Shown here one piece after another: positions 15,207-39,422 of a stretch of 45,097 nucleotides of DNA (positions within the stretch are counted from its first letter, which is position 1; every line of letters begins with the position of its first letter). Position numbers and translations under genes: made by a program. This stretch comes from Pseudomonadota bacterium (GTDB taxonomy: Bacteria; Pseudomonadota; Alphaproteobacteria; Rhizobiales; Devosiaceae), in NCBI GenBank assembly GCA_023390785.1, contig JAEWCE010000011.1:1-45097 (forward strand), in the 5' to 3' direction. Under the pieces are notes generated by a model, which ran no database searches, was not told the DNA's origin, and saw only the letters and a list, made by a program, of their open reading frames with translations.

Positions 15207-15235
15207 TACTGCCCCCGGCCGCGCCCGAGCATTCA

Positions 15236-21136: not shown

Positions 21137-21243
21137 GCCGGAACTTGCGACGGGATTGGTCAACCGGCGCGGGCAAGTCGTCTGGCGTCTCTCGCGAGGT
21201 GCCGAGCGGCATCAGGGGTCTTTCTTATCGGCGGCAAGAGTCG

Positions 21244-23757: not shown

Positions 23758-23937
23758 GGCGCTGAATCGCCCAGGAACCAACCCACGGAAAAGCCAATGG
23801 CCTTCATTGGTGTTCCAACGTTGACCGCCGAAAAATCACGCTGCTAGCTTCCGTCCAGGGTCGCGATCATGTCGGCGACCAATGCGCAATCACCAATGAC
23901 AGCTGGCCGCCTTATGCCGCGGCCGCGCGGGGGAATA

Positions 23938-24899: not shown

Positions 24900-26642
24900 A
24901 TGAGAATGGGGAAATTGCTGGCTGGGGTCTGCGTGACAGCCCTGGCTTTGGGTGGGGCAACGGCTTGGGCGGACGAAGTTACGCCCGAACGGCTGCTGAA
25001 CGCGGGCACTGATGCCGAAGCCGGCAACTGGCTTATGGTGGGCAAGACCTACAATTCGAACCGGTTTTCGACGCTGAACGACATCAACGCCAGCAATGTC
25101 GCCGGCCTGCACGTGGTTACGGCAGCGCCCATCGGTGGCACGGAGCCCGGTGGCTTCGGCGTGGGTGCGGTCGAAACGACGCCCCTGGCCGACAATGGCT
25201 TCCTGTATGTGTCGGACCCGTGGGGCACGCCCTACAAGTTTGACGTGTCGGACGGCAAGACCGCGAAACTGGTTTGGACCTGCGACACCGGCGTCGACAA
25301 AGACCCCTCGACCGGCCTCCTGATCACCCACCGCGGTCTCGCCCTCGCGGGCAATAAGGTCATTGCGGGGCTCTTCAACGGCCACGTGGTTGCTTGCGAC
25401 AGCGAAACCGGTGACGTGGTCTGGGACAAGCAGGTCGGCAAGGAAGGCGAGGGATTCATCGCCGCGCCGCTGGTCGTTGGCGACAAGGTACTTGTCAGCC
25501 AGTCATACGGTGACTGGGCAACGCGTGGCTATGTCGCCGCGCTGAAAGCGGACAGCGGCGACGAGGTGTGGCGCTGGTACGCGGTGCCCGATCCCGGGAA
25601 GCCGGGTTCGGAAACCTGGAAGTGCGACGACGCAGGCAACAGTGATTGCTGGAAGACCGGTGGCGGCGGCATGTGGGTCACGGGCTCCTATGACCCCGAC
25701 TCCAAGACCGTCTATTGGGGCACGGGCAATCCGGTGCCGATGTTCGACCCCGAGTATCGCCCGGGCGACAACCTCTATACCGACTCGAGCGTCGCGCTCG
25801 ATGCCGACACCGGCAACCTGAAATGGTACTTCCAGTACACGCCGGGCGACTATCACGACTACGACGAGGTCGGGCCCCAGCTGCTGATCGACACCAAGGT
25901 CAACGGCGAGGATCGCAAGGTCTTGGCGCACTTTGGCCGAAACGGCATCTTCTATGACCTCGACCGCACCAACGGCGCGTATATCCAGTCCGCCCAGTAT
26001 GTCGGCAAGCTGACCTGGACCAAGGGCATCGACCCGAAGACTGGCAAGCCGCTGGAATATGATCCGAGCAAGACGCTGCAGACCTATGCGGAAGGCAAGA
26101 TCGACCGCGCCGGGGCGAAGGCGACGACCTGCCCGAACCTCCAGGGTGGTACGAACTTCTTCCCGACGGGCTACAACCCGACGCTGGGCATCGCCTATGC
26201 GGTGGGCATCGAAGGCTGCTCGGACATCGCGGTGAAGACCGTGGCTCCGGCGGACGTACATCCTGGCCAGATCTTCCAGGGCGGCACTGGCGTGAACAAC
26301 GGCGTGCAGACCGGCACGATCACCGCTGTCGACGCGGCGACGGGCAAGTCGCTGGCGCAGCAGCCGACGCCGTTCCCCATGTACAGCGGGGTCATGGCCA
26401 CGCCTGACCTGCTGTGGGCGGGCTCGCTCGACGGAACCTTCGCGGCCTATGACGCCAAGACCCTCGAAGTGAAGTGGTCGATGAACGTGGGCACTGCCTT
26501 CCAGGGCTCGCCCATCGCCTTCAACGCGGGTGGCAAGGAATACATTGCCATCGTAGGCGGCGGCCCGGGCCTGGCGACCTTTGGTCATCCGGAGCTCGAG
26601 AGCAAGTCGACCGCCAACGTCCTGTGGGTCTTCGGCCTCTAA
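24900..26642 (+). CDS. Periplasmic PQQ-dependent dehydrogenase (methanol/ethanol dehydrogenase superfamily), probably lanthanide-binding, atypical active site
   Basis: AGGAGG RBS; signal peptide; NWL..G.TY...RFSTL..IN..NV, VETTP, GGGMW, WGTGNP, GDNLYT, TPGDYHDYDE, GRNG, CP...GG, GKEYIAI. Confidence 0.93.
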   Translation: MRMGKLLAGVCVTALALGGATAWADEVTPERLLNAGTDAEAGNWLMVGKTYNSNRFSTLNDINASNVAGLHVVTAAPIGGTEPGGFGVGAVETTPLADNGFLYVSDPWGTPYKFDVSDGKTAKLVWTCDTGVDKDPSTGLLITHRGLALAGNKVIAGLFNGHVVACDSETGDVVWDKQVGKEGEGFIAAPLVVGDKVLVSQSYGDWATRGYVAALKADSGDEVWRWYAVPDPGKPGSETWKCDDAGNSDCWKTGGGGMWVTGSYDPDSKTVYWGTGNPVPMFDPEYRPGDNLYTDSSVALDADTGNLKWYFQYTPGDYHDYDEVGPQLLIDTKVNGEDRKVLAHFGRNGIFYDLDRTNGAYIQSAQYVGKLTWTKGIDPKTGKPLEYDPSKTLQTYAEGKIDRAGAKATTCPNLQGGTNFFPTGYNPTLGIAYAVGIEGCSDIAVKTVAPADVHPGQIFQGGTGVNNGVQTGTITAVDAATGKSLAQQPTPFPMYSGVMATPDLLWAGSLDGTFAAYDAKTLEVKWSMNVGTAFQGSPIAFNAGGKEYIAIVGGGPGLATFGHPELESKSTANVLWVFGL

Positions 26643-26657
26643 ATCACACGAAGCTTA

Positions 26658-26683
26658 GGCCAGGCAGGTCAATCTGCCTGGCC
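26658..26683 (+). terminator. GC-rich hairpin after the dehydrogenase (terminator or mRNA-stabilising)
   Basis: GGCCAGGCAG-GTCAAT-CTGCCTGGCC, perfect 10-bp stem, no U-tract. Confidence 0.5.
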
Positions 26684-26762
26684 GTCGCATGCTGGCCAGC
26701 ACCGACCGCGTTCTTTCGCCGTTCCGTAGAAGCTGGCCGCCTTCCGGGATCCCGAGGATCTG

Positions 26763-27293
26763 TTGCTCCAAGCCCTGAAAATAGCGGCGATCGTGGTCCC
26801 GTCCATGTTGTGCCTGAGCACTGGCGTGTTCGCCGAATTCATCGCGACGCCGGACTTCACGCACGGCGATGCGGAAAGAGGCCAGCGGGTCTATCAGCGC
26901 GTCGGCCTATGCGTGAACTGCCACGGTTGGCCGGGAGACGGCCAGACCGGACTCAATCCGATGGTCCACGTCGCTGGGGCCAATCTGCGGGAGACCAAGC
27001 TGGACGAGCAGGGTCTCTTCGACATCATCCGTTGCGGCATTCCGGGCTCGCAGATGCCCTATCACGATCAGGCCAGCTACAAGGACGACCGGTGCAACGG
27101 CCTGTTGATGTCCGATTTCGCGCCCGGTCAGCGGCCGATCAGGGGCAAGACTTTCAGCGAAGCCCAACTGATCGATCTCGTCGCCTATCTCGAAAAGTAC
27201 GTTGTCGGCCATGGCAAGCCCACATACGAAGACTGCGTGCTCTACTTCGGCAGTTCTGCCGACAAGTCCTGCTCCTACCTCAAGGGCGAATGA
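26763..27293 (+). CDS. Periplasmic monoheme c-type cytochrome
   Basis: Signal peptide; GDAERGQRVY, CVNCH heme motif, PGSQMP (axial Met candidate). Confidence 0.88.
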   Translation: MLQALKIAAIVVPSMLCLSTGVFAEFIATPDFTHGDAERGQRVYQRVGLCVNCHGWPGDGQTGLNPMVHVAGANLRETKLDEQGLFDIIRCGIPGSQMPYHDQASYKDDRCNGLLMSDFAPGQRPIRGKTFSEAQLIDLVAYLEKYVVGHGKPTYEDCVLYFGSSADKSCSYLKGE

Positions 27294-28102
27294 TGCAGGG
27301 GCGAGGTGGACAATGGGCTTTGAGAGTACCGGCAATGGTGCTCCTGATGTTGACGGGGCTCACCGGCGGTCCGGTGGCCCAGGAAGCCGCCAGCGCGGCG
27401 CCGCCGGACGCCGGTGACGAGGCAGGGGCGTATCTCAGTGTCGAGCCTGCCTTCACCATCTGGGATGTGCCGCTCGGAAAGGCCGTCAGCGCCGTGCCCG
27501 ACAGCGACGCCGCGATCATCGCCTGCGGCACCAATGGCGGCCCGATTTCGATAAAACTCAAGAGCTTCGCCGACTGGGCGCAATGCACGCCCGAGGCGTC
27601 CGGACTGCGCGAGGTGGTCTTCACCTATGACGACGAGCAGGACTACATCGCTCGTGCATTGGAGCTTGAATTCCGTGCCCTCGCTGGAGGCACCTCGGTC
27701 TATGCCCACCCCGTCGTCGTCTCGATCCTCGTCGACGACAAGGGCATATCCCAGGGCATCCGGATCGTGACCGACGATCACGCCAGCGACCACGACCGAC
27801 GTGGCGCCGTGTACCTGGCCCAGAATTTCCGGGGTCAGTTCGCCTCTTGGAGTCTCCAATGCCAGGACATTCCGATGCGGGAAGGCGAACAGCCGGTCGG
27901 CAACCAGTTCACGCATCAGCGCTGCACCGGCACCAATCCGGACGGCAGCGGCCAAAGGCTGCTGATCGAGGCGAGCTATCTGCGCAAGAAGGGCCAGGAA
28001 GCGCTGAGCATCGACACCCGGCAGGTCAACAAGGGATACTACGAGTCCAGGACCAGGTTTGAACTGGTGAATTCGCCCTATTTGCCGTCCGAGGGTCCCT
28101 GA
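27290..28102 (+). CDS. Secreted hypothetical protein, translationally coupled to the cytochrome
   Basis: ATGA overlap; signal-like N-terminus; four Cys; ACGTNGGP and FTYDDEQDY motifs. Confidence 0.75.
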   Translation: MMQGRGGQWALRVPAMVLLMLTGLTGGPVAQEAASAAPPDAGDEAGAYLSVEPAFTIWDVPLGKAVSAVPDSDAAIIACGTNGGPISIKLKSFADWAQCTPEASGLREVVFTYDDEQDYIARALELEFRALAGGTSVYAHPVVVSILVDDKGISQGIRIVTDDHASDHDRRGAVYLAQNFRGQFASWSLQCQDIPMREGEQPVGNQFTHQRCTGTNPDGSGQRLLIEASYLRKKGQEALSIDTRQVNKGYYESRTRFELVNSPYLPSEGP

Positions 28103-28854
28103 GCTTGCAGGCGACCATTGGGCATGAAGTTGTTGGTCAGGACCGCGCCGGCGAATGTGCCGTCGTCCGTGGCTGCCAGGGTGAAGCGGCTGGCCGTGAC
28201 GGTGGCGTGGTCGAATTTCGTCCGTCGCAAATCGACGCCGTAGAAATCCGTCTGGGTAATTGTCGCACCCGAGAAATCGGCTCCGGAGGCAAGGGACTTG
28301 CCCAGACTTACGCCATACATGGTTGCGCCAGAGAAGTTGGAGCGCTCCACCCTGGCCCGCTCGAGGTTCGTCGCTTGGAACGATGCTCCGGTGAGATCGC
28401 AATTGTTCAGCACGGCGTCGTGGAGGATAGCCCGGTCGAGCACGGCCGCGGGCAGCTTCGCGGACGTCATCCGCACCTCCTGCATCCGCGTTTCGGCCAG
28501 GTCGGCGGCCGAAAGGTCCGCGCCCGACAGCAGGGCGTCGTAGAACATCGAGCGCGTGAAGTTGCCATCGGCCATGTGGGCCTGCGTCAGGTCGGCCAGA
28601 TTGAAATTGGTGCCGATGGCGGTGACCCCCGTAAGGATCGCACCGCGCAGGTTGGCGCGGTGGAAGGTGGCATCCGTCAGGTTTGCACCTGTCAGGTCGA
28701 CGCCGGCCAGGTCCGCCTTCTTGAAATTCGCACCCTGCAGGTCGCAGCCCCGGCATTGCTTGATCTTTCCGGCAATCAGATCTGCGGCCTGGTCCGCAAG
28801 AACTGGACCCGTCGTCAACAAGACCACGGTCGCTGCCGCCACTGCCATGCGCAT
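28078..28854 (-). CDS. Secreted pentapeptide repeat protein (PedD-like context)
   Basis: GGGAGAG RBS; signal peptide; CRGCDL followed by A(D/N)LxG repeats. Confidence 0.92.
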   Translation of the reverse strand: MRMAVAAATVVLLTTGPVLADQAADLIAGKIKQCRGCDLQGANFKKADLAGVDLTGANLTDATFHRANLRGAILTGVTAIGTNFNLADLTQAHMADGNFTRSMFYDALLSGADLSAADLAETRMQEVRMTSAKLPAAVLDRAILHDAVLNNCDLTGASFQATNLERARVERSNFSGATMYGVSLGKSLASGADFSGATITQTDFYGVDLRRTKFDHATVTASRFTLAATDDGTFAGAVLTNNFMPNGRLQAQGPSDGK

Positions 28855-28889
28855 TCTTGGTCTCTCCCGCTCTCGAAAGGGGCATGCTG

Positions 28890-29450
28890 ATGCCTTCTGA
28901 TAATGGCCGCTCTCCCCGCATTCCCAAATCCTGGACATTAGGGGTTTCAATAGTGCTCCTGGCAGGAGCCATGTGTGGCGCGTTGACTGGGTCCGCCCAG
29001 GCGCAGGCGCAGGCAAACAGCATTAGTGGCACCCCCGATGCGATCGACGCCGATGTCCTGAAATTCGGCACGCAGCGTGTAATCCTCTGGGGTATCGACG
29101 CCCCGGAAAAGAACCAGACCTGCCAGATGAACGGTCAGCTCTGGGGCTGCTACGACGCAGCGTTCCGCCATCTCCAATTGCTGGCTGGTCGCGGAGAAGT
29201 GACCTGCACCTACAAGAGCGACCCGGATCCCTTCGGCCGCCGTTTTGGCGTTTGCGAGAGTGGCGGCGAGGACCTCAACGCCGAAATGGTCAGGGCCGGC
29301 ATGGCGCTCGCTTTCGACGAGCAATCCACGGACTACGACGGTGCGATGGCCGATGCGATCACAGCGGGTGTCGGCCTGTGGCAGCCGGGCGTGAAGTTCG
29401 AGGAACCGTGGGTCTTTCGTCGGCGCGAAACGCCGGGCGGCTACAGATAA
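28890..29450 (+). CDS. Secreted thermonuclease (SNase) family protein, probably catalytically altered
   Basis: IDAD, GIDAPE.NQTC, DPFGR, LNAEMVRAGMA, GLWQ, EPW.FR; start uncertain (28884 or 28890). Confidence 0.82.
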   Translation: MPSDNGRSPRIPKSWTLGVSIVLLAGAMCGALTGSAQAQAQANSISGTPDAIDADVLKFGTQRVILWGIDAPEKNQTCQMNGQLWGCYDAAFRHLQLLAGRGEVTCTYKSDPDPFGRRFGVCESGGEDLNAEMVRAGMALAFDEQSTDYDGAMADAITAGVGLWQPGVKFEEPWVFRRRETPGGYR

Positions 29451-29461
29451 CAGGACAGACA

Positions 29462-30208
29462 ATGACTCAATTGCTTGCTGAAACCGTGATGGCGCCGGGA
29501 CGCAACGGAGCTTTCGACGCTGTCCTGAAGTGGGCGCTCCTTATGGGGCTGATCGCGATTGCGGCGATCGTGTCCTACGACTACGGCCTTCTGACCTATC
29601 TGTTCACTGCCGATCAGTCGAAGATCACGGTGCTGATTGCGGTGCTCTACGTGGCCTTCTCGGGTCACTGCCTGTGGATCCTGGTGGAGCTGTCGCGCGA
29701 ATACCGGCGAGCCCTGCAGATCAAGGACATGCTGGCAACATCGGCAAAGGTGCCAGAGCCGCCGCGCGGCAGTGGCCTGGTGGACCGTTATCTGGCCGAT
29801 TTGATCCGGTCCCGCGAGCACCCCTCGGACGTGGAAGGCGACGCCCACCTGTTGATTTCGAGCCTGGGGGCGAGTTTCCGCCGCCGCACGAAGGTGGGGA
29901 CCTACGGCACGGACCTGCTCTACAAGCTCGGCATGCTGGGCACCATGATCGGCTTCCTGCTGATGCTGAACTCGATGGGAGATCTGTCGAGCTTCGATAT
30001 CGATACGCTGCGCAAGGCGCTGCAGCAGATGATTGCGGGCATGGCGGTATCGCTGCTGACCACTATCGCCGGCCTGATCGGCGGTATCCTCCTGCGGCTG
30101 GAATACAACGTCGCCGACGCGCTGGTGACCGACCTCAGCCAGACGGTGGTTTCCTTCACCGAAGTCTCGCTCCTGCCCTTGCTCGCCCGGGGCGAGCGCG
30201 ATGTTTGA
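29462..30208 (+). CDS. MotA/TolQ/ExbB proton channel family protein
   Basis: AGGA RBS; LGMLGTMIGF and GMAVSLLTTIAGL helices; two N-terminal TM segments. Confidence 0.88.
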   Translation: MTQLLAETVMAPGRNGAFDAVLKWALLMGLIAIAAIVSYDYGLLTYLFTADQSKITVLIAVLYVAFSGHCLWILVELSREYRRALQIKDMLATSAKVPEPPRGSGLVDRYLADLIRSREHPSDVEGDAHLLISSLGASFRRRTKVGTYGTDLLYKLGMLGTMIGFLLMLNSMGDLSSFDIDTLRKALQQMIAGMAVSLLTTIAGLIGGILLRLEYNVADALVTDLSQTVVSFTEVSLLPLLARGERDV

Positions 30209-30884
30209 AGAGGAGCAGGAACCGGAGTTTGAGATCTTTTCCGCTCTCCTGTTCAATTCGCTGAAGGCCATCACCTTCATGTTCTTCATCGCGTTCGCGT
30301 TGATCAACAAGCCGGCCGAACAGGGAAATGTGGTGGTCAAGGCCGAAATGCTCATCACTGTCACCTGGCCCGACAACAATCCCGACGACGTGGATACCTA
30401 TGTCCAGGACCCGGCCGGCAACATCGTCTGGTACAACCAGAAGGAAGCCGGGTTGATGCATCTCGAACGCGATGACCGCGGTAATTTCAAGGACACGGTT
30501 CTAGTAAATGGCTCGGAAGTGACAAATCCGCTGAACCAGGAAATCGTTGCCGTGCGAGGCCTGGAAGATGGCCAGTATGTCGTCAACGTCGTTCACTACA
30601 TTGCCAACAGCGGACCGATCCCTGTCCAGGTCAAGGTCGAAAAGCTGAACCCGACAGTCAAGGTGATCTATTACCAGACGCTGCAGTTGAAGGGGACGGG
30701 CGACGAACAGACAGCCGTGCGCTTCACCCTGAAGGGGCAGGACGTCCTGGATGTCAATACGACCCCCAAGAGCCTGGTCGAGCTGACCCGGTCATCGGGT
30801 TCGAAAGATGGGGGAGGCAGCGCGGTCGGCAGTTCTCCGAACGGCCCGATCGACGCGAGGACCGGACAGGCAATTCAGCAGTGA
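30201..30884 (+). CDS. Single-TM membrane-anchored protein (ExbD/MotB-like topology) with acidic periplasmic domain
   Basis: Overlaps the ExbB-like gene; one N-terminal TM; WPDNNPDDVDTYVQDP, HLERDDRG and NQE motifs (YfaP/DUF2135-like). Confidence 0.7.
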   Translation: MFEEEQEPEFEIFSALLFNSLKAITFMFFIAFALINKPAEQGNVVVKAEMLITVTWPDNNPDDVDTYVQDPAGNIVWYNQKEAGLMHLERDDRGNFKDTVLVNGSEVTNPLNQEIVAVRGLEDGQYVVNVVHYIANSGPIPVQVKVEKLNPTVKVIYYQTLQLKGTGDEQTAVRFTLKGQDVLDVNTTPKSLVELTRSSGSKDGGGSAVGSSPNGPIDARTGQAIQQ

Positions 30885-31477
30885 CCTTCACGATCGTCTC
30901 ATTGACTGCTGCGTATGCGCTTGTGGCGTCGCTCCTTGCCTATGTCCTGTTGCTGGCGCGGCTGCACTGGTTCTTCAAGGTTCTGGCGACCGTGGCTACC
31001 GCCGTGCTGATCCCACTCACCTTCAATGCAATTGGCGAGCTGCGCGGTCTTCCCTCAGACGGGCCTATCCCCGATAGTTTCCGCATGCTTTGGGCACAGG
31101 TGACCGAACCCGATCCACTGCATCAGCAAAAGGGCGATGTGTTCCTGTGGCTACAAACGCTTGATGCCGACAACTTCCCCTTGGGGTCGCCGCGCGCCTA
31201 TCAATTGCCCTATTCGGACGACCTGAAGATCAAGGTCAACGAGGCAATGGGCAAGATCGCCCAGGGGGAAAAGATCCAGGGCACCATCGATTCCAAGAAG
31301 GTCTTGCCCAAGACCACCGCTGAGGATCTGGCGCAGGAAATCCAGGCGAGCAAGGTCGCGACAGGCAAGCTCGGTGGGGGAGAAGCGACGGTCGGAGAGC
31401 GAATACTGCAGTTCGAACCGGGGATGCTGACGTTCACCGAGGAAGCCGCCCCGGTCACACCGGGCAAGCCCCAGTGA
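30881..31477 (+). CDS. Hypothetical membrane protein (2 N-terminal TM plus soluble domain)
   Basis: GTGA overlap with previous gene; PRAYQLPYS motif. Confidence 0.75.
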   Translation: MTFTIVSLTAAYALVASLLAYVLLLARLHWFFKVLATVATAVLIPLTFNAIGELRGLPSDGPIPDSFRMLWAQVTEPDPLHQQKGDVFLWLQTLDADNFPLGSPRAYQLPYSDDLKIKVNEAMGKIAQGEKIQGTIDSKKVLPKTTAEDLAQEIQASKVATGKLGGGEATVGERILQFEPGMLTFTEEAAPVTPGKPQ

Positions 31478-31555
31478 TGGGGGAGTCGCCGCCTCGGATC
31501 GGCGGCCGGACCGACGACAGAGACTGACGACCAGGCCAGACGAGGACTCGGATGG

Positions 31556-32365
31556 TCAGGCCGGTCTTGCCGGCTGGGGCGACCCATGGCGCGCACGGTT
31601 CTGCCGGCGGATCAGGATCGGCAAGATCAGGCTGGCGAGGCCGAAGATCAGTACAATGGCCAGATCCCCCCCGATCAGCCAGCGGCCCCACCGAAGCGCC
31701 TCCACGTCAGCACCAAACCAACCGTGATCGCCCCACAGCAGCACGCGTCCGCGCTGGCCACCACCGGCACCGAGCAGGATCGACTTGCCGAGATCGGTCC
31801 TCGTTGCGCTGTCGTCCAGCCAGACGGTTATCTGGTGGCCCTGGCCGGGTGTCATCGCGCCCAGCTCCAGCGCTGGCAGCCCGGTGGAAGTCTTGGTGAC
31901 CTTCACCTTCTGGCCGTCGACTTCCGCCAACAGCGCGCCCGGCACGGTCAGGGCGACGTCGGCCGCAGCGTCGGCGCTTGTGATCGAGCCGGTGACCGTG
32001 CGTTTGAAGGATTCAAGGCCGACGAGCGCCGACAGTTCGGGGATGTCCTCCAGCATCCGGTGGACCGCCACGACATTCATCAGCCGCGGCAACACGACAT
32101 CCTTCACCCTCGCCAACACATCCGGCTTCAGCAACATGCGGGTCGCCACGTCGTCGTCTGCCCGCTCCTGCAGCGCCCTTGCCAGGTACGACGCCACCTT
32201 GTCCGCATCGACGCTCATGCCGGACGGGATGGGGAAATCCTGCACATTGAGTTCCGCCTGAAGGGGCGGCGATAGAAGGTCGCGCGCGCCGCCGGCCATG
32301 ACCAGGAGCCCGACCGCCGATGACGCGATCAGGGCCAGGGCGAGGAGAATCTGCCAGGTGCGCAT
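31556..32365 (-). CDS. Hypothetical membrane protein (N- and C-terminal TM)
   Basis: GGAG RBS before ATG 32365; hydrophobic ends flanking a soluble domain of about 200 aa. Confidence 0.7.
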   Translation of the reverse strand: MRTWQILLALALIASSAVGLLVMAGGARDLLSPPLQAELNVQDFPIPSGMSVDADKVASYLARALQERADDDVATRMLLKPDVLARVKDVVLPRLMNVVAVHRMLEDIPELSALVGLESFKRTVTGSITSADAAADVALTVPGALLAEVDGQKVKVTKTSTGLPALELGAMTPGQGHQITVWLDDSATRTDLGKSILLGAGGGQRGRVLLWGDHGWFGADVEALRWGRWLIGGDLAIVLIFGLASLILPILIRRQNRARHGSPQPARPA

Positions 32366-32492
32366 GTGGTCTCCATGAGATGCGCCGAGACTACCGGTGC
32401 CAGCCATTGAAAAATCCGATAGCCAAGATCGGTTTCTGGCACAAACGCCCAAGGTCCGCTTGCCCGGGCCGATGGTAAGAAGACTGCCGGGC

Positions 32493-33248
32493 CTAGGCGG
32501 GAACCGGGTCCGGCCGGTGGCCGGTGAGCGCAATATAAGCGTCGGTGAGATTGTCGGTTTGGCTCTGGGCCATCAGCTCGGCCGGCGACCCTGTATGGAC
32601 TATCTCGCCGGCGACCATCAGCATGATCCGGTCAGCGTGCTCGAGCTCCTCGACCAGGTGCGTGGCCCACAGGATCGAGGTGCCGTGTTCCCGGCGCACC
32701 GTCTGCATGTGCCGTACGAGCATCTCGCGCGTTACCGGATCAAGTCCGGTGGAGGGCTCGTCCATGAGCAGCAGCTCCGGGCCGTTGAGCAGGGCTCGCG
32801 CAACCTCCACCCGGCGCTGGTTTCCGCCCGACAGGTTGCGTACGGGCGTCTTCAGCAGCTCGGTGATTTCGAGCAGCTCCGCGACTTCGCTGATCCTCGC
32901 CTTGCGGGCTTCGCCGGCGAAGCCGAACAGCGCGCTGTGGAAGGCCAGGTTTGCCTGCACGGTCATGTCGAGATCGATGGCGCGCGCCTGGAACACCACG
33001 CCCAGGCGCTTGAGGATATCCTCGGCGTTGCGCCGATAGTCGAGGCCAAACAGGCGGACGCTGCCGGCATCGGCAGCGAAGAGGCCCGCGGCAATCTGAA
33101 AGAGCGTCGATTTGCCGGCGCCGTTGGGTCCCAGCAGTCCCACCACTTCGGCACGGTCGATCGACAGCGTTACGCCCTTGAGTGCCTGGGTCTTGCCGTA
33201 CGACTTCCTCAGATCCTTGATGTCGAGCACCGGGACGTCGTCGGTCAA
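32493..33248 (-). CDS. ABC ATP-binding protein, PQQ-alcohol-dehydrogenase-system type (PedB/LutE-like)
   Basis: GPNGAGKST, LGVVFQ..IDLDMTV, LSGGNQRRVEVARAL, MDEPSTGLD, LWATHL. Confidence 0.88.
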   Translation of the reverse strand: MTDDVPVLDIKDLRKSYGKTQALKGVTLSIDRAEVVGLLGPNGAGKSTLFQIAAGLFAADAGSVRLFGLDYRRNAEDILKRLGVVFQARAIDLDMTVQANLAFHSALFGFAGEARKARISEVAELLEITELLKTPVRNLSGGNQRRVEVARALLNGPELLLMDEPSTGLDPVTREMLVRHMQTVRREHGTSILWATHLVEELEHADRIMLMVAGEIVHTGSPAELMAQSQTDNLTDAYIALTGHRPDPVPA

Positions 33249-33973
33249 TTCACAGCCTCGTCGTGATGCGATAGCGCAAGCGCCAGGGCGCGTATCTGTT
33301 CTTCGCTGCGCGTGCCAGGCGGCGGGGTCAATTCGATGTCGGCGACGATCCGCGCCGGTCGACCACCCAGCACGATCGCGCGATCGGCAATCCTGGCCGC
33401 ATCGTCGGGCAGGTGGGTCACCAGGATTGCGGTTGCACGAGTGTCGCGGACGAGGTCCATGAACACGCGTTGCACTCCCGCGACCAGATGGGCATCGAGT
33501 GAAACGAACGGTTCGTCGAGCAACAGCAGTCGCGGGTTGACGGAGAACGCGCGGGCCAGCCCAACGCGCCGCTGCATGCCGCCCGACAACTGCGCCGGAT
33601 AAGCATCCTCGCTTCCGGCAAGCCCCACCCGAGCCAGGAAATCACGAGCTTCGGCTTCGGTTGTTTCCTCGCGGACCGCGCGGATATTGGCGAGCGCGCT
33701 CAGCCAGGGCAGCAGCCGTGAATCCTGGAACACAAAGCCGGCGGGTGGCGCAGCCTTGGGAGCCTTGCCGTCGATCCTGATCGACCCCGAATAAGCGTCA
33801 TCGATCCCCGCAATCATCCGCAACAGGCTCGATTTACCCACGCCGGAGGGCCCCACCAGGGCCACAACCTGCGAGGGCGGGATAGTGACGTGGAAGTTCT
33901 CGAGCAACGGTAAGTCGGAGCCCGGAAAACGCTTCTCGTCCACGTCGACGTCTAAACGCGGTCCGTCCGCCAT
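33245..33973 (-). CDS. NitT/TauT-type ABC ATP-binding protein
   Basis: GPSGVGKS, FQDSRLLPW, YPAQLSGGMQRR, LDEPFVSLD. Confidence 0.92.
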   Translation of the reverse strand: MADGPRLDVDVDEKRFPGSDLPLLENFHVTIPPSQVVALVGPSGVGKSSLLRMIAGIDDAYSGSIRIDGKAPKAAPPAGFVFQDSRLLPWLSALANIRAVREETTEAEARDFLARVGLAGSEDAYPAQLSGGMQRRVGLARAFSVNPRLLLLDEPFVSLDAHLVAGVQRVFMDLVRDTRATAILVTHLPDDAARIADRAIVLGGRPARIVADIELTPPPGTRSEEQIRALALALSHHDEAVN

Positions 33974-34692
33974 CTCAGGATGTAGTGCTCCAGTGGACGC
34001 ATGAGCCAGTATTCGACGACGAGGACCACCAGGATGAACGCCGTTGTATAGGCGAGAATGCCTGTCATGTCGAAGAACTGGAACATGGTATTGATGCGAA
34101 AGCCCACGCCGCCGCTGCTGCCCAGCACTTCGAACACGAGGACGATCTTCCAGATCAGGGCCAGCCCGGTACGCGCCGCCGCGAGCACGTACGGGGTGAG
34201 CTGTGGGATGAAGACCAGCCTGAGCCGACGCCAGAATGGTATGCGGAAGGCGAGGGCAAGCTCGTCATAGTCCGATGAAAAGCTGCGCACGCCTTCCCGG
34301 ATGGTGGTGACCACCAGGGGCACCTTGTTGATGATGACGGCAAGGATGATCGCCGTCTCGTTCAGTCCGAGTGAGATGTAGAGGACAATGGCGATCACCA
34401 CCGCCGGCAAGTTGAGGCCGACGATCACCCAGCTCGAAAACAGCCGGTCGGCGATGCGCGAGCGGCCGAACAGGATACCCAGGGCCACGCCAATGGTCAT
34501 GGAGATGGTGAACGAGATCGTCGCGCGCCACAGCGTCTTGGCCATGTCGGACATGAGCTTGCCGTCGGCGATGTCGGTCCACAGCTCTAGGGCGACGGCA
34601 GTCGGTGTGGGGAACAGGCGCCCAGGAAAGATCATCGCCAGCGCCTGCCAGACCACCAGGAGCAGGATGGTGCTGACCGGTTCCCACCGCAC
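33952..34692 (-). CDS. NitT/TauT-type ABC permease
   Basis: FPTP..V, GLNLPA, INKVP, RTGLALIWKIVLVFEVLG..GVG. Confidence 0.9.
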   Translation of the reverse strand: MRWEPVSTILLLVVWQALAMIFPGRLFPTPTAVALELWTDIADGKLMSDMAKTLWRATISFTISMTIGVALGILFGRSRIADRLFSSWVIVGLNLPAVVIAIVLYISLGLNETAIILAVIINKVPLVVTTIREGVRSFSSDYDELALAFRIPFWRRLRLVFIPQLTPYVLAAARTGLALIWKIVLVFEVLGSSGGVGFRINTMFQFFDMTGILAYTTAFILVVLVVEYWLMRPLEHYILRWRTDRV

Positions 34693-34757
34693 CCACTGGG
34701 TGCGGCGGGCGAGACTGATCTTGGTGCGCGCCGGCAGCGCGCCGCCCGGCCGATAGT

Positions 34758-35747
34758 CTATTTGTGGAACCCCTTCCAGAAGGTGCCGTCGTCGAGATCT
34801 CTCACGTCACCTACGACGTCTTTGCCGCCAAACTGAGCCATCAGGGCGAAGGCCTGCTTGGCCGGTTCCATGTCCGAATAGACATAGCTCGACACGATAC
34901 CCGCGCGGTAGTCGTCCCGCAGCTGCTTGAACAGGGCATCGTCGTCCTTGACGTTCATCACGGGGCGGATCTTGTCCCAAAGCGCGTCATCGGTCAGCAG
35001 CGCCTGCTTGGTTTCGAAGGAGGCCTCGAGGAAAGCGACAATTTCCTTCTTCTTTTCCTTGGCCACGTCGTCGAAGAAGGTCCAGCCGAGCAGCGGTGGG
35101 GTCTTGGACACGCCAAGGTCCTTGAACAGGTCCGGCACCGAGGTCAGCTGCGTCATGCCCGCCACTTTGGCGCGGGCGGCCCAGTTCCACAGGTTGAGGT
35201 CGGCCTGTGCCTTGCCGTCGACGAGCAGTTCGTTGACGAGGGGCGGAGCGCCGAACTTGACGTCGGCGTCGTCGATGAGAGTGCCGCCGGTCTGCTTCTT
35301 GTAGTCGGCTGCCAGGATCACGAAGCTCTTGTCCACCGGGCTGCCCGACACCGCGAACGCCTTGCCCTTGAGGTCGGCGATCGACGAGATGCCGGCCTTG
35401 GGATCGACCATCAGGCCGCCCACGGCGAGCGAATGCGGCACCATGGTGACCATGTTGCCCTGGTGGCGTTGCAGGTTCACCCAGACGAAATCCGACAGGA
35501 TAACCTCGGCAGCCTTGGCCTGCAGCGCCACCTGGCCGGCCGGGCTGTCGGCCACGTCGTTCACGGTCAGCTCGAGATGGTGTTTCTTGTCCAGCCCGAG
35601 CTCCTGCATTGCCGCGATTTCCCATTTGGCAGTGCCGGTCCCCTGCAGGGCGAGTGTCAGCTTCAACTGCTCGGGGCTGAAACCCGACAGCAGAGTTGCC
35701 GCGCCAAACGCGAGGCAAAGCAGCGCCGCACGACTGAATTTCGACAT
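34758..35747 (-). CDS. pqqT: ABC substrate-binding protein, PqqT-like (putative PQQ-binding)
   Basis: Signal peptide; GTAKWE, P.DKS, FGAPPL, LWDKIRPVM..DDALF..L..D..AGI match my recollection of Methylorubrum PqqT; PQQ-dehydrogenase context. Confidence 0.72.
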   Translation of the reverse strand: MSKFSRAALLCLAFGAATLLSGFSPEQLKLTLALQGTGTAKWEIAAMQELGLDKKHHLELTVNDVADSPAGQVALQAKAAEVILSDFVWVNLQRHQGNMVTMVPHSLAVGGLMVDPKAGISSIADLKGKAFAVSGSPVDKSFVILAADYKKQTGGTLIDDADVKFGAPPLVNELLVDGKAQADLNLWNWAARAKVAGMTQLTSVPDLFKDLGVSKTPPLLGWTFFDDVAKEKKKEIVAFLEASFETKQALLTDDALWDKIRPVMNVKDDDALFKQLRDDYRAGIVSSYVYSDMEPAKQAFALMAQFGGKDVVGDVRDLDDGTFWKGFHK

Positions 35748-35922
35748 GGTTCCCCCCGAACGAGTACGCTTCTTGTTGATCAAAGGAGCTAGCATCCCAA
35801 CTCATTGGCCGAGGCTATGTTTCGTATTGCCATGCGCGGGTTGCACTGGATTCGGGGGCCACGCCAGAACTGCGCATAGGTGATTTCTATCGCCGCAATA
35901 GGAACAACCTTGGGAGGATTCG

Positions 35923-36348
35923 GTGAGGGAATTCGTCGCGGTTTCATTGGTCGCGCTTTCGGTCGCCGGCCTCGTCGCCGTCCCCGCGCTCGCTGCGGGC
36001 AATCTGGCCTCGAACGGCGAAAAGCTGGAACTCAGGATCGACACGGAAAATCTGAAATTCTCGCAGAACGAGTTCGATCTCGAAACCGGTAAGTTCTATC
36101 GCATGGACATCACCGTCGATGATGCGGACGATACCGCCTTCATGGCGCCCGAGCTGTGGCGCAACGTGTGGATCAATCAGATTGTGGTCAACGACCTCGA
36201 GCTCAAGACCCAGGTACCATACAGCCTGGAGTGGGATGCCGCCGGAACGTTCAACGTCAGCTTCGTGCCGATCCGGCCGGGCGAATACGATTTCTGGATT
36301 GCCGGCTACGAGGACAGGGGCCTCAAGGGCAAGTTCGTGGTGAAATGA
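35923..36348 (+). CDS. Secreted cupredoxin-like protein without type-1 copper ligands
   Basis: GGGAGG RBS, GTG start; signal peptide; LETGKFYR, FVPIRPGEYDF, G.KG.F.V pattern; no Cys or His in the protein. Confidence 0.75.
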   Translation: MREFVAVSLVALSVAGLVAVPALAAGNLASNGEKLELRIDTENLKFSQNEFDLETGKFYRMDITVDDADDTAFMAPELWRNVWINQIVVNDLELKTQVPYSLEWDAAGTFNVSFVPIRPGEYDFWIAGYEDRGLKGKFVVK

Positions 36349-37337
36349 TGCTGATGAAGCGCCGATCAGTCCTGGCGGGAGGCGCCGCGCTGGCCGCTCT
36401 CGCCGTCGCCCGTCCAGCGGCCGCTGCCGGAACCGGCAACATCTTCGTTTCAACCGAAAAGGGCAACGAAGTCGTCGTCCTCGATCCGAGCTACAACATC
36501 ATCAAGCGCATTGCGACCTCGAGACGGCCGCGCGACATGCAGATGACCAAGGCGCACGACCTGCTCTATGTCGCCTGCGGCGACGACGACTCGATCGACG
36601 TCATCGACGTCGCCAAGCTCGAGGTGGTCGACTCGATCCCGACTGGCCCGAGCCCCGAGATGTTCCGTCTCTCCGATGACGAACAGTCGATCTACGTTTC
36701 GGACGAAGAGAACTCGACCGTCGAGCGGATCGACCTCAAGTCCAAGATCGCAACCCAGACGATCCCGAGCGGCGCGGAACCCGAGGGTATCCTGATCATG
36801 CCTGGCGGCCAGATCGTGTTCGCCACCTCCGAGGTGGCCGACATGGTGCATATCATCGATACGGCGAAGGGGGCCGTGATCAAGAACATCCTTGTGGGCA
36901 CCCGGCCGCGACGCTTCATCCATTTGCCGACGCTCAACGAAGTGTGGGTGAGTTGCGAGCTCAGTTCGGAGATCTTCATCATCGACGCCACGACCTACGA
37001 GATCAAAGGCGACAGCCTGATCATCGTGCCTCCCGGCTTTCGGGAACAGGACGTGACGCCGGTCGGCATGACCTCTCTCAAGGACGACAGCAAGGTCTTG
37101 CTCAGCCTTGGCCGCGCCAACCACATCGCCATTCTCGATGCCAGGTCGCATGATGTGCTGGCATTCGTGCTCACGGGCAAACGTTGCTGGTCCATCGACC
37201 TGAGCCGTGACGAGAAAACAGCGATCGTCGCCAATGGCCTCAGCGACGATATCACTGTTATCGATGTGCAGGCGATGCAGCCGGTGCAGTCGTTGCCGAT
37301 CGGCCGTGTCCCCCATACGGTGGTCATCGATGACTAG
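36345..37337 (+). CDS. YVTN beta-propeller protein, PQQ-catabolism-associated (PedA2/LutB-like), Tat-type signal
   Basis: MKRRSVL signal; FVSTEKGN, RPR, LYVAC.D, GPSPE, GAEPEG, VGTRPR, VANGLSDD, GRVPH. Confidence 0.9.
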   Translation: MMLMKRRSVLAGGAALAALAVARPAAAAGTGNIFVSTEKGNEVVVLDPSYNIIKRIATSRRPRDMQMTKAHDLLYVACGDDDSIDVIDVAKLEVVDSIPTGPSPEMFRLSDDEQSIYVSDEENSTVERIDLKSKIATQTIPSGAEPEGILIMPGGQIVFATSEVADMVHIIDTAKGAVIKNILVGTRPRRFIHLPTLNEVWVSCELSSEIFIIDATTYEIKGDSLIIVPPGFREQDVTPVGMTSLKDDSKVLLSLGRANHIAILDARSHDVLAFVLTGKRCWSIDLSRDEKTAIVANGLSDDITVIDVQAMQPVQSLPIGRVPHTVVIDD

Positions 37338-38592
37338 ACTGGACCTGCTTGCACTCGCGCTGTTTGCCGGTCTCGCCGTCGGGGCAGCGCCCGCCCTGTC
37401 TCAGGACGAGGCGGGTAACGCCGCCACGCAGCAAGGTGCCCCCGTGCCCGGCCCGCCGCCGAGTGGGCCGGTCTCGACCGCCAGGGTCGGCTTTCTCGAT
37501 CTCAGGGACGACGCTCGCTATCACCCACGGATCGCCTATACGCGCATCCAGATTTCGCCTGCCCTGCACCCGGTCGAGGGCGCGCGTGTGGCGCTCAGCG
37601 ACATGAAGATCGTGACCGACGCGGCCAATGTGCAATTGTCGCTCGACGAACAGCAGGCAACCGATGCCAATGATGCCATCGCCAGGCTTCAGGCCATGGC
37701 CGCCGCGGGCGAGCGGTTTGCCATTCTCGACCTGCCTGGAGAGATCGTGGCCCAGGTTGGGCCGGCGCTGGCCAATACCCCGCTCACCCTGATCAACGCC
37801 ACCGCTCCGCAGGATGCGCTGCGTGAGCTGTGCCTGCCCAACATGCTGCACGTGGCCGCGTCGGACCGCATGCTGGCCGACGCATATACGGAATTCCTCA
37901 GGCATCGAAACTGGGTCAAGGTGCTGGTCCTGCAGGGGGACCAGACGCGCGACAAGGAGATGGCTGATGCGTTTCAGCAGTCTGCCGAGCGCATGGGCAT
38001 CCAGATCGTTGCGCGCAAGCAGTTTACGCTGTCGACCGATCCGGCCAACCGGGAGAACAACGATACACTGTTGATCACGGGCGGCCTCGATTACGACGTG
38101 ATCTATATTGCGGATTCGCTGGGAGAGTATTCTCGCAAGCTGCCCTACAGCACGCAGCTCCCGCGACCGGTCATCGGCTCGACAGGCTTGACGGCCTCGG
38201 AGTGGAACTGGTCGTGGGACCAGGACAGTGCCACCCAGATCACGCTCCGCTTCCAGCGCGCCGCCGAAGGCAACCGGCCCATGTCGGGATACGACTGGGA
38301 CACCTGGATGGCGTTCAAGGCGATCGCAACGGCCTATGCCAAGGCCCGTTCCACCGACCCTGACAAGATCGACGCCTATCTCAAGGGCAAGCGTCTGAAG
38401 ATCGATGGATCGAAGGGGATCGAGTTGGACTTTCGGCCCTGGGACAGGCAGCTTCGCATGCCCATCATTCTGTCGACGAGCGACTCGACAGTGGGGGCTG
38501 CGCCGTTCCCTGAATTTCTGCACCAAAGCAACGAGCTCGACAGTCTTGGGGTCGATCAACCGGAGTCGAAGTGTCAGGTCACGCAGCAGTAG
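37330..38592 (+). CDS. ABC substrate-binding protein, PQQ-alcohol-dehydrogenase-system type (PedA1/LutA-like)
   Basis: Signal peptide; LR..C.PN.LH..ASDRMLADA..FL..RNW, DYDV, PRPV.GS.GL, DG.KG..L.FRPWDRQLR.P, FLH...LD.LG.D.PES.C. Confidence 0.85.
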   Translation: MTRLDLLALALFAGLAVGAAPALSQDEAGNAATQQGAPVPGPPPSGPVSTARVGFLDLRDDARYHPRIAYTRIQISPALHPVEGARVALSDMKIVTDAANVQLSLDEQQATDANDAIARLQAMAAAGERFAILDLPGEIVAQVGPALANTPLTLINATAPQDALRELCLPNMLHVAASDRMLADAYTEFLRHRNWVKVLVLQGDQTRDKEMADAFQQSAERMGIQIVARKQFTLSTDPANRENNDTLLITGGLDYDVIYIADSLGEYSRKLPYSTQLPRPVIGSTGLTASEWNWSWDQDSATQITLRFQRAAEGNRPMSGYDWDTWMAFKAIATAYAKARSTDPDKIDAYLKGKRLKIDGSKGIELDFRPWDRQLRMPIILSTSDSTVGAAPFPEFLHQSNELDSLGVDQPESKCQVTQQ

Positions 38593-39422
38593 CAGTCTCC
38601 CGCCCCGCTGATCTCCCTCTGCTCGCGCGTTACTGGGTCGGGTTCTCGGCCATCGTCTGGCGCGAGATTGCGAAATTCCTGCGCCAGACCGAGCGGTTGA
38701 TCTCGGCGCTGCTGCGGCCGCTGCTCTGGCTGTTGGTGTTTGCGGCCGGATTGCACGACCTGCTGGGCGTCTCCATCATCCCGCCATACCGCACCTACGT
38801 GCAATATCAGGAATATGTCCTGCCCGGCCTGATCGGCATTGTGGTGCTCTTCCAGTGCATGCAGTCGGCGCTGTCGATGGTCTATGACCGGGAAGCGGGC
38901 GTGATGCGAGTCATGCTGGTGACGCCGCTGCCGCGCAACTTCCTGCTGTTTTCCAAGATCTGCGCGGCGACCACATTGTCGGTGCTGCAGGTTTATGCGT
39001 TCGTCCTGGTGTCGCGAATTCTCGGCTTCGGCTTTCCCGGGCTCGGCTGGCTGACCATCCTGCCGGCGGTGATCGTCGTCGGACTGATGCTGGGCTCCAT
39101 CGGACTGCTGGTCTCGGTCTATACGCCAAAGATCGAGAATTTCGCTGGAATGATGAACTTCGTCGTGTTTCCGATGTTCTTCCTGTCCGCTGCGCTCTAT
39201 CCGCTCTGGAAGCTGCGTGAGGCCGGCGCCTACCTCATCTGGTACCTCGCCAATGCCAATCCCTTTACCTATGCCGTCGAATTGATCCGCTTTGCGGCCT
39301 ACGGCCAGGTCGAATGGGTGTCCTTGGGCGTCGTCGCGGGCTGCACGATCGTGGCGTTCTTCCTCGCCGCGCGGGGCTACAACCCGCAATCCGGCGCCAT
39401 CCGCAACGTGCGCCGCGCCTGA
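38571..39422 (+). CDS. ABC-2 type permease, PQQ-alcohol-dehydrogenase-system type (PedC/LutF-like)
   Basis: SALLRPLLWL.VFAAG, PPY.TY, MQSALSMVYDREAG, ENFAGMMNFVVFP.FFLS.ALYPLW. Confidence 0.9.
   Translation: MSGHAAVAVSRPADLPLLARYWVGFSAIVWREIAKFLRQTERLISALLRPLLWLLVFAAGLHDLLGVSIIPPYRTYVQYQEYVLPGLIGIVVLFQCMQSALSMVYDREAGVMRVMLVTPLPRNFLLFSKICAATTLSVLQVYAFVLVSRILGFGFPGLGWLTILPAVIVVGLMLGSIGLLVSVYTPKIENFAGMMNFVVFPMFFLSAALYPLWKLREAGAYLIWYLANANPFTYAVELIRFAAYGQVEWVSLGVVAGCTIVAFFLAARGYNPQSGAIRNVRRA

Follow-up and report, generated by a model that had tools for sequence, protein, structure and literature searches.

Does a run of genes around a divergent pyrroloquinoline quinone (PQQ) dehydrogenase act as a single oxidation system, and which of its members handle the metal and the cofactor? 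This question is raised by contig JAEWCE010000011.1 of a Devosiaceae assembly, which was analysed over its whole length of 45,097 nucleotides (the window; contig C11 of the genome). The assembly comprises 3.74 Mb in 388 contigs and is 98.67% complete, and 14 DNA runs with a rhizosphere or soil label, which come from at least 10 studies, contain the sequence of the window nearly verbatim. The segment from about position 22747 to position 39422 is probably one conserved functional island that encodes a periplasmic quinoprotein oxidation system in a rhizosphere Devosia. It is no chance neighbourhood, being conserved as a unit across many genera.

Gene content of the island

Genes were called from codon-position G+C content together with Pfam and NCBIfam scans. 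On this basis 24900-39422 holds 17 genes, named A to Q, rather than the 16 counted in an earlier interpretation that was made from the letters alone (the sequence-only reading). The conserved unit also reaches upstream to include the gene of a LysR regulator (22747-23757) and that of a protein with four transmembrane (TM) segments (23869-24558; the 4-TM protein). The genes of the island are as follows.

22747..23757, plus strand: LysR-family regulator (PF00126 and PF03466)
23869..24558, plus strand: 'm', the 4-TM membrane protein, of no family, with four hydrophobic segments, directly upstream of A
24900..26642, plus strand: A, periplasmic eight-bladed dehydrogenase of the PQQ alcohol dehydrogenase (ADH) family (PF01011, TIGR03075 alignment, Protein Data Bank (PDB) match)
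26763..27293, plus strand: B, periplasmic cytochrome c (PF13442, 36.9 bits; CxxCH)
27290..28102, plus strand: C, periplasmic protein with four invariant Cys, assigned to a new family (no Pfam, NCBIfam or ESM Atlas family)
28078..28854, minus strand: D, periplasmic pentapeptide-repeat protein, PedD-like (PF00805, 1.4e-38; signal peptide)
28884..29450, plus strand: E, secreted protein of the staphylococcal nuclease (SNase) fold, thermonuclease-like, with four invariant Cys (PF00565, 34.1 bits)
29462..30208, plus strand: F, small membrane protein of the MotA/TolQ/ExbB family, 248 residues (PF01618, 30.3 bits)
30201..30884, plus strand: G, single-pass membrane protein with a modelled periplasmic beta-sandwich (alignment and structure model)
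30881..31477, plus strand: H, protein with two TM segments and a soluble domain, of no family, third gene of F-G-H
31556..32368, minus strand: I, protein with N- and C-terminal TM segments, of no family, last gene of the minus-strand operon
32493..33248, minus strand: J, ATPase of the PedB/LutE type of ATP-binding cassette (ABC) transporter, partner of Q (TIGR03864, 271.4 bits)
33245..33973, minus strand: K, NitT/TauT-type ABC ATPase of the PqqT importer (PF00005)
33952..34692, minus strand: L, BPD_transp_1 permease of the PqqT importer (PF00528, 82 bits)
34758..35795, minus strand: M, periplasmic PQQ-binding protein of PqqT type, as predicted from sequence (PDB 9B1U/9B1V, 6.1e-38)
35923..36348, plus strand: N, small secreted cupredoxin-like protein without copper ligands (PF13473, 18 bits, below the cut-off)
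36345..37337, plus strand: O, YVTN beta-propeller of PedA1A2BC/Lut type (TIGR03866, 269.3 bits; PF21783)
37330..38592, plus strand: P, periplasmic binding protein of PedA1A2BC/LutA type (TIGR03863, 362 bits)
38571..39422, plus strand: Q, ABC-2 permease of PedC/LutF type (TIGR03861, 328 bits)

The genes are laid out as a plus-strand block A-B-C-E-F-G-H, the minus-strand gene D, which is convergent with C and divergent from E, a minus-strand operon M-L-K-J-I and a plus-strand block N-O-P-Q. Most components named in the sequence-only reading could be confirmed, namely a D-x-D PQQ dehydrogenase (A, with the motif H-D320-Y-D322-E and 163.9 bits to PF01011 against a cut-off of 26.7), a cytochrome c (B), a pentapeptide protein (D) and a PqqT-like ABC system (M with permease L and ATPase K). 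The window is also, as stated there, free of pqq genes, of a XoxJ-type solute-binding protein and of a TonB-dependent receptor. Seven genes had been called unassigned. This holds for C, G, H, I and N, whereas E is SNase-like and F belongs to the MotA/ExbB family. The 4-TM protein gave no match in Pfam.

Conservation of the island

Conservation was assessed with two scans. A scan of one genome per species with G yielded 284 loci, of which the best 80 were counted, many of them on short contigs. A metagenome scan with C yielded 442 loci, and the counts refer to the 37 loci of at least 7 kb among the best 80. Related carriers are not independent, and co-occurrence is given as counts and not as statistics.

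Around G, a PQQ dehydrogenase corresponding to A was found within 10 kb in 58 of the 80 loci, together with B in 53, C in 56, D in 59, E in 64, F in 78 and H in 76. The remaining genes were less frequent (I 35, J 48, K 43, L 37, M 38, N 39, O 43, P 44 and Q 35), as were the LysR gene (38) and the gene of the 4-TM protein (34). DUF3422, the membrane protein upstream of the LysR gene, was present in 6 loci. Unrelated neighbours in the window (a ClC channel, a spondin-domain protein and an SGL-like protein) occurred in none of the 80. Around C, A was present in 34 of 37 loci, D in 35, B in 30, E in 28, F-G-H in 25 and the 4-TM protein in 19.

Within the family, G was found in 19 of 101 Devosiaceae genomes, and 12 of 18 fetched Devosiaceae loci carry A within 10 kb of G. 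The whole A-Q set stands in the order of the window in 6 of the 18, and others hold the same genes rearranged, as is expected under functional linkage. The LysR gene is present in most of the family loci. An orthologue of A with at least 60% identity exists in 15 of the 18 family genomes with G, compared with 1 of the 82 without it, the latter a fragment at a contig end. In genomes G069 and G086 the F-G-H trio and A are unlinked yet both present. The accessory genes had been taken in the sequence-only reading to belong with a lanthanide-type dehydrogenase, and these counts agree with that claim, as does the presence of D-x-D in 54 of 61 homologues of A.

The 80 loci span Alpha-, Beta- and Gammaproteobacteria. 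Carriers include Devosia, Rhodobacterales (among them Maritimibacter, Alexandriicola, Mesobacterium, Gemmobacter, Pseudorhodobacter and Sinisalibacter), Geminicoccus, Bauldia, Chelativorans, Alsobacter and Stellaceae, as well as a metagenome-assembled genome (MAG) of Casimicrobiaceae and MAGs of Pseudomonadales. Several are in culture: Maritimibacter alkaliphilus HTCC2654, M. dapengensis, M. harenae, Alexandriicola marinus LZ-14, Mesobacterium pallidum T40-1, Sinisalibacter aestuarii, Chelativorans sp. J32 and Alsobacter ponti. Because the island occurs in cultured strains, the hypotheses put forward here can be tested directly.

Lanthanide-dependent PQQ enzymes are thought to be widespread, and those listed as biochemically confirmed in PMC11996626 are XoxF and the type 2b enzymes (ExaF, PedH) only. 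With the island comes a large and coherent clade of unstudied enzymes, marked by the motif D-Y-D-E and lacking the Cys-Cys ring. This clade has a fixed set of partners, C, D, E, F-G-H and N, the last tied to the lanthanide ABC system, and their strong co-occurrence nominates them as candidates for metal or cofactor handling. Lanthanide biology thereby gains new candidate genes to test.

The dehydrogenase A and its cytochrome

The best PDB match of A is PedH (6zcv, 8.8e-73), and residues 26-554 align to the methanol/ethanol family model TIGR03075. The motif H-D320-Y-D322-E corresponds to W-D-F-D-G of PedH, with both the catalytic Asp and the lanthanide-specific Asp kept, and D320, D322 and E323 are invariant in the alignment. 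Two further residues of PedH that are kept in A are the stacking Trp and the Arg within (G/D)-R-N-G. Across the 61 homologues, which are sequences from related loci, the catalytic Asp, the extra Asp, the GRNG Arg, the stacking Trp and, in most, the GNP Asn are retained. The form x-D-(Y/F)-D-E is found in 54 of them, and W-D-Y-T-A in six gammaproteobacterial enzymes of another type.

Other features weigh against a lanthanide-dependent PQQ enzyme. A scores below the curated cut-off of TIGR03075 (402.1 against 480.05 bits). The vicinal Cys-Cys of PedH ('PCCD') aligns to 'TGLL' in A, that is, to Gly-Leu, and Cys-Cys is not among the eight commonest residue pairs at that position, which cover 56 of the 61 homologues. 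Where PedH has its metal-binding Glu (G-G-E), A has Asp (Y-G-D). Several Trp positions of PedH, which we take to be PQQ contacts, are changed in A. Finally, A matches the model TIGR04528, 'acido-empty-quinoprotein group A', at 324.7 bits. On account of the TIGR03075 shortfall, the missing Cys-Cys, the changes in the pocket and the TIGR04528 match, binding of PQQ and a lanthanide by A is not assured.

This leads to the question whether A is a working lanthanide/PQQ enzyme at all. It might depend on Ca2+, or be an 'empty' propeller, poor in cofactor, that serves in binding or sensing, in which case D-x-D would overstate lanthanide dependence. Published surveys indeed assume the D-x-D rule for new clades rather than test it (PMC11996626). 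Yet the 61 homologues keep the residues listed above, the TIGR04528 score lies far under the model cut-off of 650, a dedicated cytochrome c always follows A, and an importer with a PQQ-binding protein and a lanthanide-type ABC system are co-inherited with A. A nonfunctional or Ca2+-dependent A is unlikely. In the alignments, the A clade is coherent and distinct, carrying the lanthanide signature and a non-canonical PQQ pocket.

The cytochrome B has as conserved features CxxCH, Met-Pro and four extra Cys, and is presumed to be the electron acceptor of A. At one locus of a close relative (G149:C58, locus L004, about 78840-82544 of the contig) a second copy of the dehydrogenase gene adjoins the first. 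It matches in two overlapping pieces, residues 1-258 and 256-580, and looks frameshifted or split.

Putative transport of metal and cofactor

All four components of a lanthanide-type transporter are present. The best NCBIfam matches to TIGR03866, TIGR03863, TIGR03864 and TIGR03861, which are 'PQQ-dependent alcohol dehydrogenase system' models, are O, P, J and Q, respectively. Only Q passes its curated cut-off (328 against 241 bits). O (269.3 against 287), P (362 against 413.6) and J (271.4 against 302) fall below theirs, which speaks against an unqualified assignment. PedA1A2BC of P. putida and Lut of M. extorquens are described as experimentally shown to act in lanthanide import (PMC12997753, PMC7391723). 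O, P, J and Q correspond to PedA1A2BC and to LutA/B/E/F and, by analogy, may transport lanthanides here. A Ped/Lut-like ABC system with a YVTN propeller had been recognised in the sequence-only reading. One correction is that its ATPase J is encoded in the minus-strand PqqT operon and not with O-P-Q.

N always lies just upstream of the propeller gene O. It gives a weak PF13473 signal (18 bits, under the cut-off), carries no Cys, His or Met ligands and has a conserved G-N-L-A at the mature N terminus. A sequence search of N against solved chains in the PDB, with E values up to 10 admitted, gave nothing better than E 0.84, so that N matches no solved chain, lanthanide-binding ones among them as far as the searched copy contains them. 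The position of I varies across loci.

M matches the PqqT structure sequence 9B1U at 6.1e-38 over 285 residues and keeps the motifs G-T-A-(K/S)-W-E and D-K, in which the residue after Lys is Ser and not Asn. In terms of PqqT, T41 and K142 appear to be kept and N143 to be replaced by Ser, with a numbering that we infer through an offset of 27. PqqT is described as contacting PQQ through Thr and Lys, the Lys occupying the position of the metal in dehydrogenases (PMC11331073). The best NCBIfam matches of the ATPase K are taurine, nitrate and phosphonate ATPases.

No pqqC was found in this 98.67% complete genome by a search that detected the gene in 17 of 61 genomes from the order and 15 of 101 from the family, and a tblastn search with the open frames around pqqC of two relatives gave weak radical-SAM matches only. 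Devosia strains are described as needing exogenous PQQ (PMC8779532). Given this precedent and the missing pqqC, PQQ scavenging is the plain reading for the present strain. It does not extend to the island as such, because pqqC is present in 7 of the 18 other family genomes with G. In one of these, G149, it lies on the same contig as the island, about 14 kb beyond the LysR gene (L004). These 7 relatives make their own PQQ and yet keep the PqqT genes, which is a point against the working proposed below. The earlier description of a cofactor-scavenging system stands for the strain and fails for the system in general.

The importers need not serve A alone, since the genome holds other PQQ enzymes and a XoxJ/PedG-type gene elsewhere. 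There are three such enzymes (contigs C85, C102 and C13), among them a membrane enzyme of the glucose dehydrogenase type and a soluble PQQ enzyme of the glucose/sorbose type. On the 2.5-kb contig C85, positions 125-1377 hold the C-terminal piece of a PQQ alcohol dehydrogenase, truncated at the edge of the contig. Behind it comes a PedG/XoxJ-type solute-binding protein that is the only TIGR03871 match of the genome (302 bits). Among the proteins of the window, no solute-binding protein of the TIGR03870/TIGR03871 type (XoxJ/MxaJ/PedG) was found.

The periplasmic proteins C, D and E

C always follows A-B. It has a signal peptide, four invariant Cys and, in the alignment, motifs such as C-G-x-x-G-G-P and Y-D-D-E, and it belongs to no family in Pfam, NCBIfam or the ESM Atlas. 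A structure model of C is confident (predicted local distance difference test (pLDDT) 79.6, predicted template modelling score 0.73), and a Foldseek search with it against the PDB gave no match at E 1e-3 or better. A wide VIA-align search reached a top Z of 6.8. Rows resembling PsbP, Mog1, DcrB and LpqN scored Z 4.7-5.6, which is under the meaningful level and serves as a lead only. A predicted complex of mature A with mature C scored 0.01 against a mark of 0.32, a result that is evidence neither for nor against binding.

Distant relatives of C (38-45% identity) occur with pentapeptide genes in the soil contigs L179, L183, L191, L193 and L196. In these contigs C and D stand among as many as eight paralogues of the PQQ dehydrogenase, and F-G-H is missing. 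Since the distant relatives of C keep PQQ dehydrogenases and D without F-G-H, A, C and D form the deepest core of the island.

D matches PF00805 and has a signal-peptide-like N terminus and a conserved N-terminal CxxC. The pentapeptide protein is no novelty: PedD of the Pseudomonas ped cluster is described as a pentapeptide protein beside PedE/ExaA with no defined role (PMC12997753). By its pentapeptide repeats, predicted export and PQQ-ADH neighbour, D corresponds in kind to PedD. PedD, long known and never explained, thereby gains a much wider comparative frame.

E exceeds the PF00565 cut-off of 21 bits. Among 65 sequences, R65 is conserved in 65, D72 in 60, E75 in 51, R119 in 63 and D55 in 61. 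These residues presumably correspond to R35, D40, E43, R87 and D19/21 of SNase, that is, to its active and Ca2+ site. A PDB sequence search with E gave no match at E values up to 0.1, and the PHROGs matches of E are of nuclease type.

The F-G-H trio

The trio recalls the ion-driven complexes ExbBD-TonB, TolQR, MotAB and ZorAB in its order of a PF01618 protein (F, 30.3 bits against a cut-off of 22.9), a single-pass protein with a periplasmic domain (G) and a membrane-anchored protein (H). It differs from them in that G matches neither ExbD nor MotB/OmpA nor ZorB and has no universal membrane Asp, H has no TonB_C domain and there is no receptor partner. In addition, the domain of G is an acidic beta-sandwich of no family. 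The model of G shows one TM helix and a sandwich of about 150 residues (pLDDT 63), and the alignment an invariant acidic motif, W-P-D..DD-D..P-G..VWY..L-RDDRG. There are 2333 homologues of G, none of them named. No Pfam family fits G, a Foldseek search of the model against the PDB gave no match at E 1e-3 or better, and a PDB sequence search gave nothing better than E 0.45. The ESM Atlas points to YfaP/DUF2135 and PPC at 0.82-0.83, as a lead only, and PHROGs gave one weak match, to a group of unknown function. For H, with its two TM segments and soluble domain, Pfam gave no match.

The gene order raises the question whether F-G-H is a divergent ExbB-ExbD-TonB set that energises a TonB-dependent receptor for uptake of lanthanide or PQQ across the outer membrane. 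Many G sequences carry P-F-T-D-I-L-F, which resembles V-T-P-F-V-D-V-M-L of TolR. The genome has one TonB-dependent receptor, no ExbB/ExbD beyond TolQR and the flagellar MotA, and no TonB_C domain match. Six gammaproteobacterial loci carry F-G-H beside another type of PQQ enzyme (below), and in four closely related ones a receptor gene lies beside the trio. Against this, no Plug domain was found in two of the five cluster-bearing genomes tested, G083 and G061, the latter a single-contig chromosome. With two receptor queries, tblastn detected a receptor in no alphaproteobacterial locus, a search that could miss divergent receptors. Nor does G behave as an ExbD: it has no match to PF02472 at E values up to 10, an hhalign comparison with a 20-sequence TolR alignment paired a TM segment of 9 columns only (probability 0.2%), and of 79 G sequences, 29 carry the ExbD-like membrane Asp and 50 do not, the G of the window having Ala there. 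F-G-H does not depend on a TonB receptor, and the TonB explanation is highly unlikely. The TolR comparison and the variable Asp also count against the role proposed below for the trio in the island.

Recognisable lanthanide TonB receptors are few, with 41 among 1,888 marine MAGs according to PMC11996626. The single receptor of the present genome, on contig C248, passes a siderophore-receptor model. An identification as PqqU was rejected, as the PqqU model gave 62 bits against a cut-off of 1200. Besides F, the MotA/ExbB-family genes of the genome are those of TolQ (with TolR, beside ruvB) and of flagellar MotA only; the contigs concerned, that of the receptor included, are C238, C198 and C248.

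The trio is not confined to the D-x-D clade. In six gammaproteobacterial loci (L090, L091, L092, L093, L096 and L099, about 9270-15820), from Pseudomonadales and other MAGs, it stands beside a quinohemoprotein ADH that has a PQQ propeller, a C-terminal cytochrome c and W-D-Y-T-A in place of D-x-D. This links F-G-H to PQQ enzymes and not specifically to lanthanides.

Could F-G-H, perhaps with E, then be an autonomous envelope or mobile module (phage-derived, MotA-like of the defence type or a general envelope machine) with no quinoprotein role? G-like proteins with 29-39% identity are found in 14 viral contigs of IMG/VR (L103-L116, where each locus matches at about 8001-8600). Five of these loci were examined, and every one has a small MotA_ExbB gene directly upstream of the G-like gene and another small open reading frame downstream, with phage-type genes (a topoisomerase subunit, a PD-(D/E)XK nuclease and DUF932) in the surroundings. 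The F-G core is thus borne by phages as well. F-G-H is also found without other island genes in loci L011 and L012. The occurrence of the trio alone and in phage-like contigs means that it is not exclusive to quinoproteins, which weakens the case for a dedicated part in the island. Weak ZorA matches of F in PADLOC (12-21 bits) point in the same direction. Zorya itself was ruled out, as these matches cover the channel region only and the 248-residue F has no long ZorA tail; for G, H and E, PADLOC gave no match. Set against an independent module are the 58 of 80 loci in which F-G-H adjoins a PQQ dehydrogenase, its pairing with two enzyme types (the DYDE clade in Alphaproteobacteria and the quinohemoprotein ADH in the six gammaproteobacterial loci), the genome-level co-occurrence of G and A (15 of 18 against 1 of 82) and the two genomes in which trio and A are both present in spite of being unlinked. 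A trio with no quinoprotein role is therefore unlikely. Our reading is that F-G is an autonomous membrane module which PQQ-enzyme clusters have recruited repeatedly. F-G could help to supply or activate periplasmic quinoproteins, in a way coupled to energy or metal.

Comparison with known systems

The island shares with the P. putida KT2440 ped cluster a D-x-D enzyme of the PQQ-ADH family, a dedicated cytochrome c, a pentapeptide-repeat protein and a four-part ABC system (propeller, binding protein, ATPase and ABC-2 permease). It differs in that its enzyme lies below the family cut-off and lacks the Cys-Cys ring, its ATPase J is encoded in another operon, and its regulator is of LysR type. Moreover, PedG/XoxJ, PedI, PedS2/R2 and SoxYZ/SoxH-like genes are missing from the island. 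Conversely, C, E, F-G-H, I, N and the PqqT importer have no counterpart in the ped gene table of PMC12997753.

The lut cluster of Methylorubrum extorquens AM1 (LutA, LutB, LutE, LutF, LutH and the small periplasmic LutC/D/G) was compared by description. Both systems have a binding protein, an exported propeller-type protein, an ATPase, a permease and small periplasmic proteins (PMC7391723), whereas the island has no LutH-type TonB receptor and no lanmodulin. The arrangement of the importer also differs from that of PqqT (PDB 9B1U/9B1V), with the gene of M in one operon with a permease, its ATPase, a PedB-type ATPase and gene I. The M. extorquens host of PqqT makes PQQ, unlike the host of the island. 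In sum of these likenesses, the island resembles a ped/lut-type lanthanide-PQQ system, of which, judged by curated thresholds, the enzyme and three of the four transporter parts are divergent relatives and not members.

Another explanation would be an ordinary, already understood alcohol oxidation cluster of the ped/exa type with a few passenger genes. In its favour, parts resembling PedD, PedF and PedA1A2BC can all be recognised, and among solved structures PedH comes nearest. The gene-table differences just given stand against it, and the supposed passengers are conserved as strongly as the core. In addition, no paper that joins the terms PQQ-dependent, thermonuclease and pentapeptide was found in open full-text literature; subscription journals and supplements lay outside this search, so a prior description is possible. 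Within the same scope, a search for Devosia with lanthanide and PQQ returned only work on deoxynivalenol dehydrogenases, and one for Maritimibacter with PQQ incidental mentions. A known ped/exa cluster with passengers is very improbable.

Proposed working of the island

For a periplasmic quinoprotein system, the following working is proposed, in which we infer the use of a lanthanide, the substrate and what C, E, F-G-H, I and N do. The non-methylotrophic character and the own assembly machinery named in the sequence-only reading are likewise hypothetical. A, with PQQ and a light lanthanide, would oxidise an alcohol, an aldehyde or a sugar in the periplasm and pass the electrons to the cytochrome c B. 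O-P-Q-J, probably with N, would carry Ln3+ from the periplasm to the cytoplasm in the manner of PedA1A2BC and LutAEF. M-L-K would capture and import exogenous PQQ in a strain that appears unable to make it. C and D most likely act on the enzyme A, in maturation, cofactor loading or stabilisation, in the place that XoxJ/PedG takes elsewhere. F-G-H would be an inner-membrane complex built on a MotA/ExbB-type channel, with the acidic beta-sandwich of G projecting into the periplasm, and might use membrane energy or metal binding to supply or activate PQQ enzymes, with no TonB-dependent receptor involved. The LysR regulator would control the gene set. One point that tells against such a dedicated system is that no substrate-related gene is conserved beside the island.

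A bolder version goes further. F-G-H would then be an unrecognised class of MotA/ExbB machine, free of a TonB-dependent receptor and serving periplasmic PQQ enzymes, in which G binds Ln3+ or Ca2+ and membrane energy inserts metal and PQQ into the apo-dehydrogenase, with C and D as maturation factors and the phage F-G pair serving another task. This version is unlikely.

Expression, regulatory sequences and neighbouring genes

Four RNA libraries, which belong to three studies (wastewater, root and soil), contain contigs that align to A with 0-3 mismatches over 150-530 bases, and pieces of such contigs also align to B, D, J, K, N, O, P and Q. These matches are near-identical sequence in RNA libraries, where DNA carry-over is possible. 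Depth peaked over A, a value not taken as a level of expression, as contig depth cannot rank genes. No inference was drawn for genes without cover.

The divergent starts of D and E lie about 29 bp apart (28855-28883), so that either the promoters overlap coding sequence or the starts lie further in. Upstream of A, a GC-rich inverted repeat of 14+14 nucleotides (24631-24658; of perfect-stem type, 86% complementary, with no T run and no Rfam family) sits between the gene of the 4-TM protein and a leader of about 240 nucleotides before the start of A. No Rfam match at gathering thresholds was obtained anywhere in the window, and a promoter and terminator scan of 22500-40000 gave counts no higher than those of shuffled sequence. 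The inverted repeats of 22500-24950, 35750-35970 and 28800-28920 had none in common between these stretches.

One further feature lies close to the island.

21145..22566, plus strand: DUF3422 membrane protein (PF11902, 1.4e-110), loosely linked

DUF3422 stands beside F-G-H or the LysR gene in several Devosiaceae loci (L003, L009, L010 and L015-L018). In the window, the stretch 20072-22566 before the LysR gene holds a secreted propeller gene of the SGL/Vgb-lyase-like type, followed by that of the DUF3422 protein.

The remainder of the contig (1-19400 and 41207-45081) is ordinary. It encodes a GH36 alpha-galactosidase, a GntR regulator, a sugar ABC system, a sulfatase, an enolase-superfamily enzyme, a TauE exporter, short-chain dehydrogenases/reductases and a two-component system, together with a spondin-domain protein, an extracytoplasmic function sigma factor with an NrsF anti-sigma factor and a fusion of a dioxygenase resembling 4-hydroxyphenylpyruvate dioxygenase.

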